In this document: piece by piece, positions 4,727 to 47,193 of the stretch | Layout of the letters: each line of letters starts with the position of its first letter | How positions within the stretch are numbered: position 1 is the stretch's first letter | From: a virus | Taxonomy: Duplodnaviria > Caudoviricetes | Direction: 5' to 3' (one strand) | Virus record (IMG/VR): IMGVR_UViG_3300031836_000002 | Location: 32,001 to 96,000 of that record | Length of the DNA stretch: 64,000 nt | The notes under the pieces: model-generated | Told to the model about the DNA's origin: nothing | The model's database searches: none | The model's input: the letters and a program-made list of their open reading frames with translations, nothing else | Translations under genes and position numbers: made by a program

Positions 4727-4784
4727 GATTGCTTTTGACATCTATATGTGACATGCTGGAGGTACATTGACTTTGGAGGTCACC
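4727..4784 (+). promoter_or_regulatory. plus-strand promoter and RBS
   Basis: TTGCTT-17-CATGCT with TTGCTTTTGACATC box, GGAGGT RBS. Confidence 0.55.
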
Positions 4785-4943
4785 ATGGAAAATTCACCCA
4801 CGTACAACAGCTTCGGAAGTGCTGTTCGCGCTCTCTACCAAGCTCACACGGTCAATCGAGCACGGTTTCACGCCATGCGTCGAGTCATCGGCTACCGTGG
4901 CGCTGTCGCTTCAGTGTGGACTAATCCGTACTGGGGCAGCTAA
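4785..4943 (+). CDS. 52-aa protein MENSPTYNSF...NPYWGS (not in ORF track)
   Basis: GGAGGT RBS 4 nt before ATG; translated by hand. Confidence 0.65.
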   Translation: MENSPTYNSFGSAVRALYQAHTVNRARFHAMRRVIGYRGAVASVWTNPYWGS

Positions 4944-19299: not shown

Positions 19300-19358
19300 A
19301 GTGTCTCCTTCAGTTGACCTTACATCCTGAGCATAACACACTAGATTGCAATTGCAAT
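19300..19358 (-). promoter_or_regulatory. repeated promoter-RBS module
   Basis: TTGCAATTGCAA, TG-n-TATGCT, TAAGGTCAA, GGAGACAC. Confidence 0.8.
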
Positions 19359-27191: not shown

Positions 27192-27249
27192 GGGATCTCC
27201 TTCAGTTGACTTTACTCTTTGAGCATAGCACATAGATTGCAATTGCAAT
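27192..27249 (-). promoter_or_regulatory. repeated promoter-RBS module
   Basis: TTGCAATTGCAA, TG-n-TATGCT, TAAAGTCAA, GGAGAT. Confidence 0.8.
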
Positions 27250-39534: not shown

Positions 39535-39601
39535 GGTGTCTCCTCTGTGACTGGTTGACCTTACACTTTGAGTCTAGCAACTTTAGATTGCAATTGCAAC
39601 C
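39535..39601 (-). promoter_or_regulatory. repeated promoter-RBS module
   Basis: same core as 37551-37611. Confidence 0.85.
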
Positions 39602-40213
39602 TCTGAGCTACTAGCTTTCTCTGTTGTTGTGGAGGAATAGCTGGATCTCATCCGTGCCTGCCACATCGAAATCGTAGGGACCATCTGGGAGTTCCACAGT
39701 GTCCGGATACGTTTCTCGATCTGAGAATGTCACAAGGATCGACTCGCCCCCGTCTCCATGCCGGGGTAGGTACTTCCGCGTGGCTTCTATCTTGGGCTTC
39801 ATGGCTCTAACTGGTAGCTGCCCACCAGTTGGTCGAAGTCCCCGGCTCGCACGAGGATCAGGTCAGCGGTCTCCACGAGGGCCTTGACGTTAGCAATGGT
39901 GTACTCGAACCCGATGACACTGGACAAGGCAGAGCTACCGGGCTTGTAGCTCTCCATCAGCCTAAGGGTGATGGGCTTGGCGCGACTCTTGGGATTGTGC
40001 TTCACCTCCCACCAGCGGCTGTGTCCGGCTTTGGGGAGACTTTTCTTCAGCTGCTCACGCAGGTGGGAGGTGATCGGCTCTTTGGTGGTCATGATCTGTT
40101 GTACGCCTATCTCCGGGCGTAGAAAAGGGCTGGCCTTCCGAGAATACGGTTTGACCAGCCCAGCGACCCAAAGCGCCCCCACCGGGCCGCGTGGTCAGTC
40201 TATACGACTACTG

Positions 40214-40287
40214 TCCCTCAGGGTGGACTCGAACCACCGCGTCACCTTGTTATGAGCAAGGGGCCTTACCAGCTTGGCTACCGAGGG
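40214..40287 (-). tRNA. tRNA-Met or Ile2 (CAT)
   Basis: cloverleaf, CCTTG-CTCATAA-CAAGG, paired 1:72. Confidence 0.85.
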
Positions 40288-40407
40288 AAGTGAGGGAGGC
40301 TCGCACCCGTCGATGCGAGCGTCACCCTCGTGCTCGTTTCACTGCCTCGATGAGCTTCGAGTGAGGGACCTTCTCCCTCAGGCAGTCGTGCCCGCAATTC
40401 TTCTTTG

Positions 40408-40481
40408 TGGATCCACAGGGACTCGAACCCTGAACCATGTGCTTGCAAAGCACGCGCTCTACCAGTTGGAGCTATAGACCC
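40408..40481 (-). tRNA. tRNA-Ala(TGC)
   Basis: cloverleaf, loop TTTGCAA, G3:U70. Confidence 0.9.
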
Positions 40482-40492
40482 TCGATCATGCG

Positions 40493-40566
40493 TAGCCTCA
40501 ACAGGATTTGAACCTGTGACTTCCTCCTTATCAGGGAGACGCTCTACCAGACTGAGCTATGAAGCT
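40493..40566 (-). tRNA. tRNA-Ile(GAT)
   Basis: cloverleaf, loop CTGATAA. Confidence 0.9.
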
Positions 40567-40594
40567 TTGTCGCGGATCCGCCGCGCCGGTATTG

Positions 40595-40666
40595 TCCCCT
40601 CGACTGGATTCGAACCAGTGGCCAAGAGATTAGAAGGCTCCTGCTCTTCCTCTGAGCTACGAAGGG
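40595..40666 (-). tRNA. tRNA-Arg(TCT)
   Basis: cloverleaf, loop CTTCTAA. Confidence 0.85.
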
Positions 40667-40669
40667 AAG

Positions 40670-40743
40670 TGGAGACGGAACCCGGAATCTAACCGGGGTA
40701 AGAAGCTTTGCAGGCCCCTGCCTAGACTCTCGGCCATTCCGCC
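40670..40743 (-). tRNA. tRNA-Cys(GCA)
   Basis: loop CTGCAAA, U73, encoded CCA, T-loop TTAGATT. Confidence 0.85.
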
Positions 40744-40753
40744 AAATTCTTGT

Positions 40754-41047
40754 TTAGGTCTCATCCTCTGGACGTTCCTCGAATGTGATAGCCACATCCT
40801 TTCCCAGCATAGAGTCGAACCAAGCGGCTGCTTCAGGGTTCCCTACGGTGAGTTTGACCTCTCCCGATGGGGTGGCGGATGACCACGCCTCGTTCTGAGG
40901 CCCTTTAGCTCCTGATACAGGAGACATGACTACTTCGATGCGGGGGGCTGGATTCGCCCAACCACTAGCGTGAGCCTGAGAGACCGATGCAGCGAAACGC
41001 TTGACTTCACGGACGTAGAAACGGGCGGTGACTTTGGATATGGACAT
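40754..41047 (-). CDS. hypothetical protein within tRNA array
   Basis: GAGGAGG RBS before MSISK. Confidence 0.75.
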   Translation of the reverse strand: MSISKVTARFYVREVKRFAASVSQAHASGWANPAPRIEVVMSPVSGAKGPQNEAWSSATPSGEVKLTVGNPEAAAWFDSMLGKDVAITFEERPEDET

Positions 41048-41149
41048 AGTTGCCTCCTCGGCAATAGTTGAATTGAACTTGAGGAGGTCTGCGAACCAGA
41101 TTTGAGCCTGCGTCCGAACCTGTGCCCAGTGTAGCTCATTTCTTCTTTG

Positions 41150-41221
41150 TAGGCCTTGAGGATTCTGCCACCTCGACCCTCCGCTTAAAAGGCGGATGCT
41201 CTGCTTCTGAGCTAAAGGCCC
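41150..41221 (-). tRNA. tRNA-Lys(TTT), atypical T-loop
   Basis: TCCGC-CTTTTAA-GCGGA; T-loop GGCAGAA. Confidence 0.8.
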
Positions 41222-41226
41222 TAGCG

Positions 41227-41298
41227 CTCCGGGGGCTGGGGTCGAACCAACGCCACCTGATTCCAAAGATCAGCGTGCTGCCATTACACCACCCCGGA
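41227..41298 (-). tRNA. tRNA-Gln(TTG)
   Basis: CTGAT-CTTTGGA-ATCAG. Confidence 0.9.
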
Positions 41299-41372
41299 TT
41301 GAAGAGTCCACTACCTGTTAGGCCGGTCTTGGATAGGGCTAGCCAGCCGTGTGCGCTGCCCGTGGACTCTAG

Positions 41373-41443
41373 CTCCCCACCAAGGATTCGAACCTCGACA
41401 AACTGGCTCAGAACCAGTTGTGCTGCCGTTACACCAGCGGGGA
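41373..41443 (-). tRNA. tRNA-Gln(CTG)
   Basis: ACTGG-TTCTGAG-CCAGT. Confidence 0.9.
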
Positions 41444-41516
41444 ATATAGCAAGACGTGAGTATTAGTACCGACCGTCTTCGCAGGGATGATTGATGTTTG
41501 TCCCCACGTCTTACCG

Positions 41517-41588
41517 TGCCCTTCGAGGGATTCGAACCCCCAACATACGGTTCCGAAGACCGGCGCTCTTCCGTTGAGCTAGAAAGGC
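41517..41588 (-). tRNA. tRNA-Arg(TCG)
   Basis: loop CTTCGGA. Confidence 0.9.
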
Positions 41589-41642
41589 AGACCCGGCGCT
41601 GATCCAACAGCACTCCTGAATCGAACAGTCCGTTCCGGGGTT

Positions 41643-41705
41643 GTTAGCGCTCTGCCATTGAGCTACCGATCAAATCGGCTGGGACTCGAACCCAGATACT
41701 CTAAC
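41643..41705 (-). ncRNA. circularly permuted tRNA-like RNA (T arm, closed acceptor stem, D arm)
   Basis: GTTAG-AGTAT-CTGGG TTCGAGT CCCAG-CCGAT TTG ATCGG-TA-GCTC AATGGCA GAGC-G-CTAAC. Confidence 0.8.
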
Positions 41706-41707
41706 CG

Positions 41708-41779
41708 TGCCCTTCGAGGGATTCGAACCCCCGGCCCTCTCATCCGTAGTGAGATGCTCTTCCGCTGAGCTAGAAAGGC
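41708..41779 (-). tRNA. tRNA-Arg(ACG)
   Basis: TCTCA-CTACGGA-TGAGA. Confidence 0.9.
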
Positions 41780-41861
41780 ATGTGATGTGCCCGCCAATTA
41801 CCTCAGGCACATCGTCGTCAATTTTTCCTCCACTCCGAGTAAAATTGAAAAACCCTCGTCG

Positions 41862-41929
41862 TAACGTTGGCTGGATTCGAACCAGCGACCACCTCATGAG
41901 GAAGCTCTGCCTACCTGAGCTACAACGTC
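41862..41929 (-). ncRNA. tRNA-like RNA lacking an anticodon loop
   Basis: intact acceptor, D and T arms; anticodon arm reduced to CCTC-AT-GAGG. Confidence 0.75.
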
Positions 41930-42028
41930 TATCCCGTGGGGCAATTACTCCCACTCGTCCAGCTTCTGAAGCCTTTGGATCCCCACGTCATGGCCATGCC
42001 GCGGTTCCTCTCCAGCTCCGTCTACTCG

Positions 42029-42100
42029 CTCCCCATCTTGGATTCGAACCAAGGACCAATCGGTTAACAGCCGAACGCTCTGCCTCTGAGCTAACAGGGA
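42029..42100 (-). tRNA. tRNA-Asn(GTT)
   Basis: loop CTGTTAA. Confidence 0.9.
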
Positions 42101-42339
42101 TTACGTGAGATGGAAGCTGTCCTGCGTACTCAGGACCTTAGTGCTTCGTCGTTTCACCTATGGGGAGTACGACATTCCCCACCGGTAGGACACCCACTTG
42201 CCCTTTGTCTTCTCCAGAGCTTCGAGACACTGAAGAGGTGATCCGGAGATTTACGCACTCCGACAGTGACCTCATTACAGAGGATCGCGTGCCAGCTTTT
42301 CATTTTTGAAAGGTCTTGAGGCTGGATCCGTTGACCTTG

Positions 42340-42411
42340 TGCTTCTCAGAGGACTCGAACCTCTGACCGGTGCCGTGTAAAGACATTGCTCTGCCGCTGA
42401 GCTAGAGAAGC
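42340..42411 (-). tRNA. tRNA-Val(TAC)
   Basis: loop TTTACAC. Confidence 0.9.
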
Positions 42412-42412
42412 A

Positions 42413-43348
42413 TTAGGCAGGAGAGAGTTTCTCCGCCGCCGCACGGTACCGATCTAGAATGTCTGTCTTCTGGATGTGGTCCCGTTGCGGGTAGAACGTG
42501 TAATGACTGACCAGCGCGTTCCCGGCGATGGCAGTAGGCCGGTTCAGTCGCGTTGGCATCTCGATGGAGTGCCACGCCTCATCGTCAGTGTGTTCGATGT
42601 AGCCGGGAGGAGTGCAGTGGTTGTGATACTCCTCGGAGAGGCTGGCGAAACAGCTCACGCTAAACTGCTGCCCTAGTGGGAGCTGCACGTCGTGATAAAG
42701 AAACAGCTTGCTGACTGTTCCGGCTTCCACATGGTCTAGGAGAAGGTTGTGCATCTTTTCCGCGAATGGTCCGTCTGCCCAGCCAATTGGGTCCATGCAG
42801 TACGGCTGCACTTCTCCCCACTCGCGGGGCACACAACCTTGCATCTGGAGGTACCACGTGGATATAGCGTTGTTCCAGATGATGGGGAAGGTCACGAAGG
42901 CTGAGCTGGAGAGCTTCGACTTCACCAAAGTAGCAAGGGCGTCCTCGTGGATGTAAACGATGTCGTCATCAAATCGGACGTAAACCGTGTTCGGCTCCAC
43001 ACAGTTCTCGAAGAAAACTCTTGTGTTGTACTGCTTCTTGTGGTTGAGATTCCGGGTGGCTGGCGCGTACTTCTGTGTGATCCAGTCATGCTCAGCTGCC
43101 AGCTTGTCGGCGTAGGAGACATCCGAGACCTGATCCGGGTCGGTGTTCATCCAAAGCTGCCACTCATCCAAGACTCCTCTTTCGTGGTCCCTTTGGAGGT
43201 AAGAGAAAAGGATGGATGCAGTCGCCACCCTGCCGTATGGTGTGCAAGCAACTACCCGGCTTTCCAGAACTGTCATGGGACCAACAGTAGCAAACTCTGG
43301 AATCTCATACCCGTGGTTTTGGAGGCCCTTTGCGCTGTCGGAGGGCAA
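42413..43348 (-). CDS. putative GT-A glycosyltransferase-like protein (start uncertain, possibly 43276)
   Basis: TPYGR N-terminus and YVRFDDDIV DxD motif. Confidence 0.6.
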   Translation of the reverse strand: MPSDSAKGLQNHGYEIPEFATVGPMTVLESRVVACTPYGRVATASILFSYLQRDHERGVLDEWQLWMNTDPDQVSDVSYADKLAAEHDWITQKYAPATRNLNHKKQYNTRVFFENCVEPNTVYVRFDDDIVYIHEDALATLVKSKLSSSAFVTFPIIWNNAISTWYLQMQGCVPREWGEVQPYCMDPIGWADGPFAEKMHNLLLDHVEAGTVSKLFLYHDVQLPLGQQFSVSCFASLSEEYHNHCTPPGYIEHTDDEAWHSIEMPTRLNRPTAIAGNALVSHYTFYPQRDHIQKTDILDRYRAAAEKLSPA

Positions 43349-43406
43349 GTCCGTCTCATTCCTGAGAGATCTCTCTTTTCCTGTTGGACTGTTCGAGATA
43401 ACATCG

Positions 43407-43481
43407 GGCCTCTGGAGGGATTCGAACCCCCGACCGTCGCTTTACAAGAGCGTTGCTCTGGCCAAACTGAGCTACAAAGGC
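43407..43481 (-). tRNA. tRNA-Thr(TGT)
   Basis: loop CTTGTAA. Confidence 0.9.
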
Positions 43482-43753
43482 ATGTGCTGAGGAGATCGTG
43501 AGATATCGTGCGCTCAGCTCGCTCTGGCCTTTCGGTATCCAGACCCATGCCACAGCGGGCGAAGGAAAGTCCACCCCCTGCAACTCCGACAAGTTGTTCG
43601 GTCAGGGGGCTTCACATCTGCGCTGCCTACGAGAGGCTGCGAGAAAAAGTGCACCGGATGCCCTTGCAAAGGCGCTCCTTCCGAGGGAGCCAGACGGACT
43701 CAAGTTGTTCGTGATGTCTGAGCCGAACGCTGGTGACTAACTGCGTCCTTCCG

Positions 43754-43824
43754 AGGAGTACGCGGGGATCGAACCCGCGATGTCTGTTTGGAAGACAGAC
43801 GTGTTACCGCTACACCAGTACTCC
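43754..43824 (-). tRNA. tRNA-Gly(TCC)
   Basis: TCTGT-CTTCCAA-ACAGA, U73. Confidence 0.9.
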
Positions 43825-43910
43825 GTGAGCGCATTTAGCGGGTGCGCCTGACCATCCCGAAGAGAGGATACAGCCTCTCAATCCCAGCTCCCTGTATGAG
43901 GCTGGATCTG

Positions 43911-43982
43911 TGGGCCTGCGTGGAGTCGAACCACGTTCTCTTGATTAAGAGTCGAGAGCATCACCACTAATGCTTCAAGCCC
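43911..43982 (-). tRNA. tRNA-Lys(CTT)
   Basis: loop CTCTTAA. Confidence 0.85.
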
Positions 43983-44317
43983 CGATATTTTGCTATGTTC
44001 TCCGGTAACTGCATCCTCTCGAATGTTCTAATTCGATGACAGGTACCACAAACTACGTCACATTTTGCAATCTCAGCCATGATCCGGTTTATGGACTTAC
44101 CCATGAGAGCTGCCACTGTAGTAGCGGGATCGCTATCACGGTTCACCCTGTGGTCAAACTCTAATCCGGCGTGATGGGCTGAGTACCTGCAATCCGCACA
44201 CCCCTGAGACACCTTGTACTCCCGAACCACCATGACGTTCTTTTGATACCGGCCTCGCATGTACGCTGCCATGTAATCTCGGTACTCTTGGGAGCTTTTA
44301 TCTCTGGGTCTACTCAT
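43967..44317 (-). CDS. HNH endonuclease
   Basis: CADC..LEFDH..EIAKCDVVCGTCHRIRT. Confidence 0.85.
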   Translation of the reverse strand: MSRPRDKSSQEYRDYMAAYMRGRYQKNVMVVREYKVSQGCADCRYSAHHAGLEFDHRVNRDSDPATTVAALMGKSINRIMAEIAKCDVVCGTCHRIRTFERMQLPENIAKYRGLKH

Positions 44318-44341
44318 GCAGTAAGAATACCTTATCTAACT

Positions 44342-44429
44342 TGGCGGAGAACTGAGGGCATGATCCCCTCACCTTGCGGTGCCAACCGATTAGCAATCGG
44401 TGCCGGTGCGCCTGCCCGGTAAGCTCTCC
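44342..44429 (-). tRNA. tRNA-Ser(GCT)
   Basis: ACCGA-TTGCTAA-TCGGT, long variable arm, G73-CCA. Confidence 0.85.
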
Positions 44430-44430
44430 A

Positions 44431-44523
44431 TGGCGGATGAAGTAGGTCTCGAACCCACACGGGTATTACCCCCAACTGTTTTCAAGACAGCGCCCGATAG
44501 GCCGAAGCTCGGGTTATTCATCC
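44431..44523 (-). tRNA. tRNA-Ser(TGA)
   Basis: loop CTTGAAA, long variable arm, G73-CCA. Confidence 0.85.
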
Positions 44524-44547
44524 TTGTGTTTTTCTCTGTGGAATTAG

Positions 44548-44576
44548 AAAAGCCCCAGACTGTTAGGTCTAGGGCC
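44548..44576 (-). terminator. attenuator terminator of tRNA operon 2
   Basis: GCCCTAGAC-CTAACA-GTCTGGGGC-TTTT. Confidence 0.8.
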
Positions 44577-44605
44577 GCATTAGCGAGATTCGAAAATCTG
44601 CTGAG

Positions 44606-44680
44606 TTAGGACAGCCCTGAAGTACTGCGATTGGCCACAATGGCCGATCCCATTACTTGCTTGGACTGGTTTTTTCTCAT
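44606..44680 (-). CDS. leader peptide MRKNQSKQVMGSAIVANRSTSGLS
   Basis: ATG 6 nt after -10 (leaderless); codons match downstream tRNAs. Confidence 0.8.
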   Translation of the reverse strand: MRKNQSKQVMGSAIVANRSTSGLS

Positions 44681-44686
44681 GCGTTG

Positions 44687-44716
44687 ACCCTACTACTACT
44701 TTCAATCGAGACGCAA
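44687..44716 (-). promoter_or_regulatory. sigma70-type promoter of tRNA operon 2
   Basis: TTGCGT-18-TAGGGT. Confidence 0.7.
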
Positions 44717-44741
44717 GTGCATCCCGAAATTCTTCTTTGAT

Positions 44742-44877
44742 TGGACGATGCAGACGATTCGAACGCCACTTCCAACACTCTAGGCTGGCGAGCTGCCGCT
44801 GATGCTCTCCGGGATACGAACGCGCGCTCGACATCCTCCGGTGCTGTCTTTGGTCTACCTGATTACTCCATACATCG
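44742..44877 (-). ncRNA. tRNA-like RNA with large insertion in place of anticodon loop
   Basis: CGATGTA/TGCATCG acceptor, T-CCA end, GGCG-TTCGAAT-CGTC T arm. Confidence 0.65.
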
Positions 44878-44879
44878 AG

Positions 44880-45112: not shown

Positions 45113-45256
45113 GGATTGATCGAGCTTCAGAAGGCCGGGAGGATTCGAACCTACACACCAGCGCGTTTCCCCTCGGGCTACCAAGGGTACTAAACGCCGC
45201 CTCTGCCACTTCAGCTTTTTAATAGTGCGAACCAACCTACGTCCGCTCGATCAATC
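45113..45256 (-). ncRNA. tRNA-like structured RNA in a 13-bp closing stem
   Basis: GGATTGATCGAGC/GCTCGATCAATCC, AGG-TTCGAAT-CCT. Confidence 0.6.
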
Positions 45257-46266: not shown

Positions 46267-46305
46267 ATGTTGTTGCATTCACTGTGTAATTATCAAGGTG
46301 CAATG

Positions 46306-46336
46306 AAAAAACCTCCTTGCCCGGTGGCTAGGAGGT
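46306..46336 (-). terminator. attenuator terminator of tRNA operon 1
   Basis: ACCTCCT-A-GCC-ACCG-GGC-A-AGGAGGT-TTTTT. Confidence 0.85.
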
Positions 46337-46362
46337 CTGCTGCGTTTGAGCGCGTGCTACCT

Positions 46363-46407
46363 CTAGCCGAAGTAATCTTCCGGCAGGAGGTGTGAGAACG
46401 TGTTCAT
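46363..46407 (-). CDS. leader peptide MNTFSHLLPEDYFG
   Basis: ATG 7 nt after -10 (leaderless); stop inside antiterminator strand. Confidence 0.8.
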   Translation of the reverse strand: MNTFSHLLPEDYFG

Positions 46408-46414
46408 GTAACAG

Positions 46415-46444
46415 ACCTTAGTTGCGTGAGCTGACGGTTGTCAA
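46415..46444 (-). promoter_or_regulatory. sigma70-type promoter of tRNA operon 1
   Basis: TTGACA-18-TAAGGT. Confidence 0.8.
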
Positions 46445-46536: not shown

Positions 46537-46564
46537 TCGTACTATAAGGATTGCATGTGCAATC
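46537..46564 (-). promoter_or_regulatory. promoter/operator for tRNA-fMet
   Basis: TTGCACATGCAA palindrome next to TATAGT. Confidence 0.6.
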
Positions 46565-47042: not shown

Positions 47043-47073
47043 GCTGTTCCTTTTCGTTGACCTAACAAAATCG

Positions 47074-47193
47074 TACTGAAGACGGGATTCGAACCCGCAT
47101 GCTACGTGTCGCGTTCACGTGCTTGCCTCTACACCTTGACCTCCGCCTCTAAAAGGCGTAGCCACACACTGCCAGCTTTTAAGTCACTCCAGT
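47074..47193 (-). ncRNA. tRNA-like RNA with expanded D region
   Basis: ACTGGAG/CTTCAGT acceptor, ACGTG-7nt-CACGT arm, GCGGG-TTCGAAT-CCCGT. Confidence 0.6.

Follow-up and report, generated by a model that had tools for sequence, protein, structure and literature searches.

The window analyzed here is a 64,000-nt stretch (bases 32001 to 96000) of an IMG/VR phage genome that is complete at 124,209 bp and bounded by direct terminal repeats; the phage has a GC content of 55%, carries nearly all of its genes on the minus strand, and is present in brine metagenomes of several studies. A tRNA array of about 7.4 kb, likewise on the minus strand, runs from 47610 to 40213 and represents all 20 amino acids. 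ARAGORN called 28 of its tRNA genes by default, and Rfam together with relaxed ARAGORN settings added the two that the default run had missed, Ser(tga) (44523..44435) and Lys(ttt) (41221..41150), giving a cluster of about 30 to 31 genes. The longest non-coding spacer of the array, the 355 nt between tRNA-Leu(gag) and tRNA-Ser(tga) (44878..44524), contains the unit referred to below as Attenuator 2. Its features and those of the block behind it are as follows.

44711..44716, minus strand: TTGCGT, a -35-like hexamer 18 nt upstream of TAGGGT, within a degenerate copy of the promoter palindrome that folds as a hairpin
44683..44693, minus strand: GTAGGGTCAAC, which differs at one position from the cassette motif GTAAGGTCAAC and contains TAGGGT (44692..44687), with 6 nt between this hexamer and the ATG
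44606..44680, minus strand: leader ORF 2, MRKNQSKQVMGSAIVANRSTSGLS followed by TAA, 24 codons with an ATG start
44663..44668, minus strand: region 1, CAGUCC (codons 5 and 6), which can pair with GGGCUG of region 2
44611..44618, minus strand: region 2, AGGGCUGU, in the final codons of the leader ORF, with regions 1 and 3 as alternative partners
44586..44599, minus strand: AGAUU-UUCG-AAUCU tetraloop hairpin, nested in the loop of the candidate antiterminator
44571..44578, minus strand: region 3, GCGGCCCU, overlapping the 5' arm of T2
44545..44576, minus strand: terminator T2, GGCCCUAGAC-CUAACA-GUCUGGGGCU and then UUUCU (hairpin 44576..44551; 10 bp, -17.0 kcal/mol)
44435..44523, minus strand: tRNA-Ser(UGA), the first gene behind T2, starting 27 nt past the T2 stem, with no space for a promoter
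40213..44429, minus strand: remainder of the block behind T2, with tRNAs Ser-gct, Lys-ctt, Gly, Thr, Val, Asn, an odd tRNA(tca), Arg (three), Gln (two), Lys-ttt, Cys, Ile, Ala, and Met
40127..40161, minus strand: end terminator of the array (-20.8 kcal/mol), 52 nt past the last tRNA

The block behind T2 thus holds tRNA-Ser(UGA) and 18 further tRNA genes, 19 in all, for 12 amino acids, with an HNH gene and two other ORFs lying between them (40213..44429). The HNH endonuclease gene (43967-44317, minus strand; PHROG 3106) shares 16 nt with the 5' end of tRNA-Lys(ctt), and its relatives lie within the tRNA arrays of unrelated phages (contigs L002 to L005), as expected of a homing element that targets tRNA clusters. 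The odd tRNA (41861-41929, minus strand) is 69 nt long, with a 3-bp D stem and the anticodon TCA, which would read UGA; TGA is nonetheless the commonest stop among the long ORFs of the phage (51 of 116). Directly after tRNA-Leu(gag) lies a tRNA-like remnant (44741-44877, minus strand) with a 7-bp acceptor stem (CGATGTA/TGCATCG), the T-arm-like sequence GGCGTTCGAATCGTC, and a 3' TCCA, about 60 extra bases, and no cloverleaf. Fragments resembling it occur in the spacers at 47073-47146, 45130-45212, and 41589-41706. Considered as a tRNA with an intron or a long arm, the 137-nt remnant was not called by ARAGORN (introns allowed, relaxed thresholds) and folded no better than shuffles.

A terminator that transcription into the distal tRNA genes probably has to pass

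Just four sites in the whole array combine a hairpin with a U tract: T2, the terminator T1 described below, a weak site at 43680..43647, and the end terminator. Within the array, strong terminator-like hairpins are limited to T1 and T2, and a third closes it. T2 itself is the third strongest of about six terminator-like sites on this strand of the genome and the best in its region, and it lies 30 nt from leader ORF 2 and 27 nt from tRNA-Ser(UGA). The original prediction, which described a leader-peptide attenuator at this position, had named a constitutive terminator together with the use of another promoter by the Ser-to-Met tRNAs as an observation that would speak against it. A sigma-70 scan of this strand downstream from T2, including the 27-nt gap, gave no promoter-like site between T2 and these tRNAs, and the promoter palindrome of the phage has a weak match downstream at 43669..43656. 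Since there is no promoter-like site past T2, the Ser-to-Met block must be reached through T2, a situation that fits an attenuator or a leaky terminator and not an independent operon.

The second of these possibilities is the main rival to an attenuator: T2 might act constitutively, as a terminator or insulator with some leakage, and so hold the distal tRNAs at a fixed, lower dose, with the ORF before it untranslated and its match to these tRNAs due to chance. We consider this rather unlikely, for reasons that lie chiefly in the composition of the ORF, in a second unit upstream, and in the layout that the two share; the weak points of the attenuator reading, which speak for the leaky terminator, are given alongside.

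The leader ORF is written almost entirely in the amino acids of the tRNAs behind T2

The ORF stands in the genome exactly as originally quoted, and each of the ten codons then named as exact complements of downstream anticodons does have such an anticodon, a match that holds only after Ser(tga) and Lys(ttt) have been added to the array. The broader claim that the codons mirror the downstream anticodons at the level of isoacceptors was borne out for amino acids and not for exact anticodons. Over the whole of leader ORF 2, 11 of the 24 codons are exact complements of downstream anticodons (P of about 0.10), a result in keeping with a leaky terminator. Among the first 11 codons, the count is 10 of 11 (P of about 0.001, with a cutoff set post hoc); the exact matches cluster in codons 1 to 11, which is the window where a stall would permit pairing of region 2 with region 3. 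Six codons (TCC twice, GCC twice, ACT, and CTG) are unreadable by the tRNAs of the block under standard wobble rules.

The agreement in amino acids is closer and tells against a chance match upstream of a leaky terminator. Of 23 leader residues, 22 fall within the 12 amino acids of the downstream block (P = 0.0045), Leu being the sole residue outside this set, and when the test also counts how many of the 12 amino acids are represented (11), P falls to 0.0005. The null for these tests was every ATG-started open stretch of the genome; a family-wise test, set against the best-scoring ORF from each dinucleotide shuffle of the spacer as a whole, gave P = 0.009. Each amino acid appears one to five times, without the tandem runs of classical leaders. 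A contig from one sequencing run (X11) is without one A of the A6 run at 44670, a deletion that would shorten the leader ORF to 8 codons; because the same contig has a similar homopolymer deletion in the C5 run within tRNA-Ser, we read it as a probable homopolymer error.

A longer ORF of 84 codons (44834..44580) overlaps the leader and is open, ends 4 nt before the T2 stem, and has GGAGG directly before its ATG, so that it could in principle be the real gene, with T2 merely as its terminator. This seems extremely improbable: its codon usage score is -0.15 per codon in frame, versus +0.12 to +0.29 for the neighboring genes; it has no Pfam or PHROG match and no homolog among 5.8 billion proteins; its GGAGG abuts the ATG without spacing; and it starts inside the tRNA-like remnant.

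A twin unit upstream has a complementary leader

A second unit with the same layout, absent from the original prediction, lies 1.7 kb upstream of Attenuator 2.

46305..46444, minus strand: twin unit, Attenuator 1, with TTGACA-18 nt-TAAGGT-7 nt-ATG, the ORF MNTFSHLLPEDYFG (46407..46363), and terminator T1 (46337..46310) followed by U6

T1 has a folding energy of -17.5 kcal/mol and follows the ORF of 14 codons; between T1 and T2 lie the tRNAs for Pro, His, Asp, Glu (two), Tyr, Phe, and Leu (two). Leader 1 covers all seven amino acids of its own block in 9 of 13 residues (P = 0.0004 with coverage; family-wise P = 0.001), and the two leaders are almost complementary in composition, each fitting the block behind it. 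The alternative pairings of this unit are well defined. Region 1 (ACCUCCUGCCGG, within the ORF) is nearly identical to region 3 (ACCUCCUAGCC, the 5' arm of T1), and region 2 (GGCUAGAGGU, which runs from the last codon through the stop to the fourth base beyond it) can pair with the one or the other. With a ribosome stalled at codons 3 to 9, the 2:3 helix stabilizes the 5' arm by 8.5 to 13.9 kcal/mol in the folding model, a value matched by 0 of 400 shuffles, whereas with the ribosome at the stop codon this stabilization vanishes. That a twin exists, with a complementary set of amino acids and a highly significant switch, counts against T2 as a simple leaky terminator, and we regard the twin as a working attenuator with greater confidence than we do Attenuator 2.

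Sequence comparison revealed no real homology between the two units. The only notable similarity is AAC-N-CAGCAGA, found between the leader stop and the terminator in both (44595-44606 and 46340-46352, minus strand), which may be a pause or binding site.

Start signals differ from those of ordinary phage genes

The ordinary genes of the phage sit in a repeated cassette of the palindrome TTGCAATTGCAATC, TAnGCT, GTAAGGTCAAC, GAAGGAGACACC, and ATG, of which there are about 19 copies (for example, at 19313-19357, 27205-27248, and 39554-39599, minus strand); the motif GTAAGGTCAAC occurs 20 times, versus 0.68 expected, and the real genes carry AAGGAG. In a relative from another metagenome (contig L017, 840-915), TTGACA-17 nt-GATACT is followed by GTAGGTCAAT, and on this ground the cassette motif probably marks transcript 5' ends in this phage lineage. 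A near-perfect promoter palindrome, TTGCACATGCAATC, also stands at 46549-46562 (minus strand), only 12 nt before tRNA-Met(cat); no -10 box follows it at the customary distance of 7 nt, and it might be a promoter or an operator.

Leader 2 starts 2 nt after its one-mismatch copy of GTAAGGTCAAC and is without an AAGGAG box. Upstream from leader 1 we find TTGACA, 18 nt, TAAGGT, 7 nt, and ATG; upstream from leader 2, the order is TTGCGT, 18 nt, TAGGGT, 6 nt, and ATG. The common pattern, TTGNNN-N17-18-TA[AG]GGT-N5-8-ATG, has two sites on both strands of the 124-kb genome, and both are the leader ORFs; a geometry that the two units share and that occurs nowhere else in the genome is a further point against an untranslated ORF before a leaky T2. 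The TAGGGT of leader 2 could be either a weak Shine-Dalgarno sequence or the -10 box of a leaderless transcript that begins at the ATG. As a Shine-Dalgarno sequence it would indeed be weak, as the leaky-terminator reading would have it: the duplex with the anti-Shine-Dalgarno sequence is worth -3.8 kcal/mol, which is matched by one third of all AUGs in the genome.

These degenerate signals could also mean that the spacer is functionless, decayed DNA, in which a leftover terminator stands beside what remains of a tRNA, of a promoter cassette, and of a gene start. The tRNA-like sequence at 44877..44741, with its acceptor stem, T-arm-like GGCGTTCGAATCGTC, and CCA but no cloverleaf, would suit such an origin, as would the degenerate palindrome and -10 box of the cassette and the missing AAGGAG box. 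We nevertheless find it highly doubtful, as the part from leader to terminator is well structured and of nonrandom composition, and the sequence is identical across several brine metagenomes from different studies, though these copies are near-clonal.

The purine motif AAAGAAGAATTT seen after tRNA ends is a strand-biased word found genome-wide, often within coding sequence. In the form AAAGAAGAA(TTT) (for example, at 44730-44738, 41140-41148, and 40398-40406, minus strand), it has 70 versus 15 copies by strand with at most one mismatch, and it is found after several tRNA 3' ends and some stop codons and before some ATGs.

Alternative RNA structures around T2

Region 2 can pair in two ways. With region 1, it closes an imperfect hairpin of 57 nt spanning codons 5 to 23 (-25.8 kcal/mol), the base of which is CAGUCC:GGGCUG (the latter in codons 22 and 23). 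With region 3, 8 bp are possible between AGGGCTGT (44618..44611) and GCGGCCCT (44578..44571), two of them G-U, and the 2:3 helix with its nested hairpin has an energy of -11.8 kcal/mol. The pairing originally proposed as an antiterminator therefore exists and overlaps the 5' arm of T2, but it is no stronger than expected in many random leaders: the stabilization of the T2 5' arm by the 2:3 helix (-7.8 kcal/mol) is equaled by 14% of dinucleotide-shuffled leaders, a point in favor of a constitutive T2. The joint logic of the stalled, ribosome-free, and stop-codon states is attained by 4% of shuffles.

Cotranscriptional folding, which had been suggested as a check, gave a similarly divided picture. 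When the transcript stops short of region 4 (the 3' arm of T2) and its 5' half is masked by a stalled ribosome, the 2:3 helix forms with a probability of 0.96 to 0.98, but when only the footprint of the ribosome is masked, the T2 5' arm also pairs with the upstream UAGGGUC, and the modeled discrimination between a stall and a ribosome at the stop is small. Whether the T2 5' arm is paired at all in truncated transcripts proved of no use as a test because some partner is always available to the arm. In the full transcript at equilibrium, T2 wins in every state (P > 0.9). Such dominance is what a constitutive terminator would show, and any antitermination effect here must be kinetic; in classical attenuators, the terminator likewise wins at equilibrium once the full transcript is present. 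The switch of Attenuator 2, taken by itself, is plausible in the folding models, although folding statistics do not prove it.

The 191 nt around the ORF, which comprise the long hairpin, the UUCG hairpin, and the terminator, fold better than shuffles (z = -3.5; whole spacer, -2.8). Structure of this strength, together with a possible promoter about 150 nt before the terminator, could indicate a structured noncoding RNA, an element for the processing or stability of tRNA precursors (RNase targets or 3'-end protection), or a small RNA of about 150 nt running from the weak promoter to T2, and the tRNA cluster of phage T4 is known to contain stable small RNAs. As a full account of the locus this appears quite unlikely, since it leaves the amino acid composition of the ORF and the twin unexplained, and Rfam covariance models, including the T-box, had no match in 44524..44878 at E values up to 1. 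An attenuator would also release a short RNA of this kind, so that the two readings are not exclusive.

Relatives and comparable units in other phages

Relatives with this spacer were sought by several routes. An exact-pattern scan of viral contigs found none, blastn against GenBank phages returned matches to tRNAs only, and the HNH gene led to the tRNA arrays of other phages, none with a similar spacer. Among the other ORFs of the array, a search with ORF156 gave one distant match in viral contigs, with no syntenic array, and four matches in metagenomes, among which the best, L017, carries one tRNA gene, for Pro, and no attenuator; ORF311 had no match, and a Pfam search of the array ORFs gave none. 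The nearest relatives, one of them complete (about 54% amino acid identity in a neighboring 385-aa protein), have no tRNA array. Brine metagenome contigs from four runs are near-identical and therefore yield no covariation.

Units of the same kind were found in two other phages. In the Caulobacter phage CcrColossus, MMTYRNNVRQIRVRQFN... and a terminator are followed by tRNAs Val, Ile, Ile, Gln, Gln, Asn, and Arg; the leader DNA reads TTGACA... ATG ATG ACC TAT CGC AAC AAC GTG CGC CAA ATT CGA GTT CGC CAG TTT AAC..., and the terminator is strong and annotated. Gp097 of the same phage was rejected as a leader, being an ordinary small protein. The IMG/VR contig L004 (106 kb) has two such units, at 1099-1240 and 4770-4900, each a leader ORF plus a terminator with a peptide that matches the tRNA block behind it. 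One has AGGAG-7 nt-ATG, the leader MKMQLSSSRYLSSLDCLSAS... / MKMQLSSSRYLSSLDCLSASRRVLDQT, and a terminator, with tRNAs Leu, Cys, Leu, Leu, Leu, Ser, Ser, Tyr, and Asp directly behind it; the other (..IRRAEKRV..) precedes tRNAs Lys, Lys, Arg, Glu, Glu, Arg, Arg, and Val.

These units resemble Attenuator 2 in layout: the short ORF draws on the amino acids of the tRNA block that follows, and a terminator separates it from the tRNAs, which begin a few dozen bases on. They share no sequence similarity with it, and we therefore take CcrColossus, L004, and the present phage as independent instances. The start signals also differ, with TA(A/G)GGT here versus a strong AGGAG in L004, and the RNA switch of Attenuator 2 is the weaker one. 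The occurrence of such analogs in two other phages is the last of the observations that weigh against a merely leaky T2, and recurrence in unrelated phages suggests a widespread, overlooked rule.

Discussion

We think it fairly likely that Attenuator 2 is a working, ribosome-mediated leader-peptide attenuator that gates the distal 19 tRNA genes. The reading as an attenuator remains the best explanation of the locus, by virtue of the 1:2 hairpin, the twin, the shared start geometry, and the two other phages, even though the exact codon mirror and the antiterminator proved weaker than first claimed. That the composition of the leader mirrors the tRNAs behind it and that a terminator comes directly after it make a switch in the style of the trp operon probable; the case is one of composition, twin, and layout, mainly, rather than of folding statistics. 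Together with the upstream unit, we infer that it is the second of two leader-peptide attenuators that split the tRNA operon into blocks.

A possible course of events can be outlined from the sequence features. Transcription would arrive from the weak promoter TTGCGT-18 nt-TAGGGT or by read-through of the preceding block, and a ribosome would translate the leader of 24 codons, written almost wholly in the amino acids of the tRNAs behind the terminator. When charged tRNAs are ample, the ribosome would reach the UAA and cover AGGGCUGU, so that T2 would form and transcription would stop 27 nt before tRNA-Ser. When any charged tRNA is scarce, the ribosome would be expected to stall in codons 2 to about 11, where the codons match the phage anticodons exactly; the stall would open the 1:2 hairpin, and the freed AGGGCUGU could pair with GCGGCCCU and hold the 5' arm of T2, allowing the RNA polymerase to continue into the 19 tRNA genes. 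With no translation at all, the 1:2 hairpin and then the terminator would be predicted to form.

On this basis, it can be proposed, at roughly even chances, that self-correcting blocks are a common way for phages to run large tRNA arrays, each block with a "roster" leader peptide that samples its amino acids and a switchable terminator, so that scarce tRNAs are topped up, here twice with complementary rosters and possibly from leaderless transcripts. If this is true, a phage could top up exactly those tRNAs that are scarce, e.g., after a mismatch in codon usage or after attack by host defenses that cleave tRNAs. Such an element, if real, would provide the first case in which decoding speed feeds back directly on the transcription of tRNA genes, would help to explain how phages dose large tRNA sets, and would constitute a compact natural sensor for the supply of many tRNAs simultaneously. 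Two complementary leaders in one array provide a clean experimental system.

Leader-peptide attenuation is textbook knowledge, but to our knowledge it is described for amino acid biosynthesis and for a synthetase operon, not for tRNA genes. Full-text literature searches likewise found no paper describing leader-peptide attenuation of tRNA genes, including units of the CcrColossus and L004 type. The closest known systems are the multivalent leader-peptide attenuators of enterobacterial amino acid operons (ilvGMEDA and thr, and also trpL, hisL, leuL, and pheL), which likewise have a short ORF directly before an intrinsic terminator. As in these, region 2 by the stop codon can pair either with region 1 in the ORF or with the 5' arm of the terminator, and the leader is enriched in those residues whose supply the operon governs; the helix energies of Attenuator 2 are within the range reported for trp. 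It differs from this type in that the controlled genes are tRNAs and not enzymes, so that the element would sense and correct decoding capacity directly. Moreover, its leader lists about 11 amino acids one to five times each, where the enterobacterial leaders repeat one to three of them in runs; its setting is the tRNA array of a phage, and the element occurs there twice, with complementary amino acid sets.

The pheM leader of E. coli pheST, which contains Phe codons only and controls an aminoacyl-tRNA synthetase operon, is also a case of leader-peptide attenuation acting on the translation apparatus rather than on amino acid biosynthesis; in Attenuator 2, by contrast, the leader names many amino acids, and the genes behind it encode the tRNAs themselves. 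T-box riboswitches, too, couple the status of tRNA to read-through of a terminator upstream of translation-related genes, but they bind uncharged tRNA directly, with neither a ribosome nor an ORF, and have no match here. Attenuator 2 is most likely a known mechanism, leader-peptide attenuation, in a new application, the control of tRNA genes.
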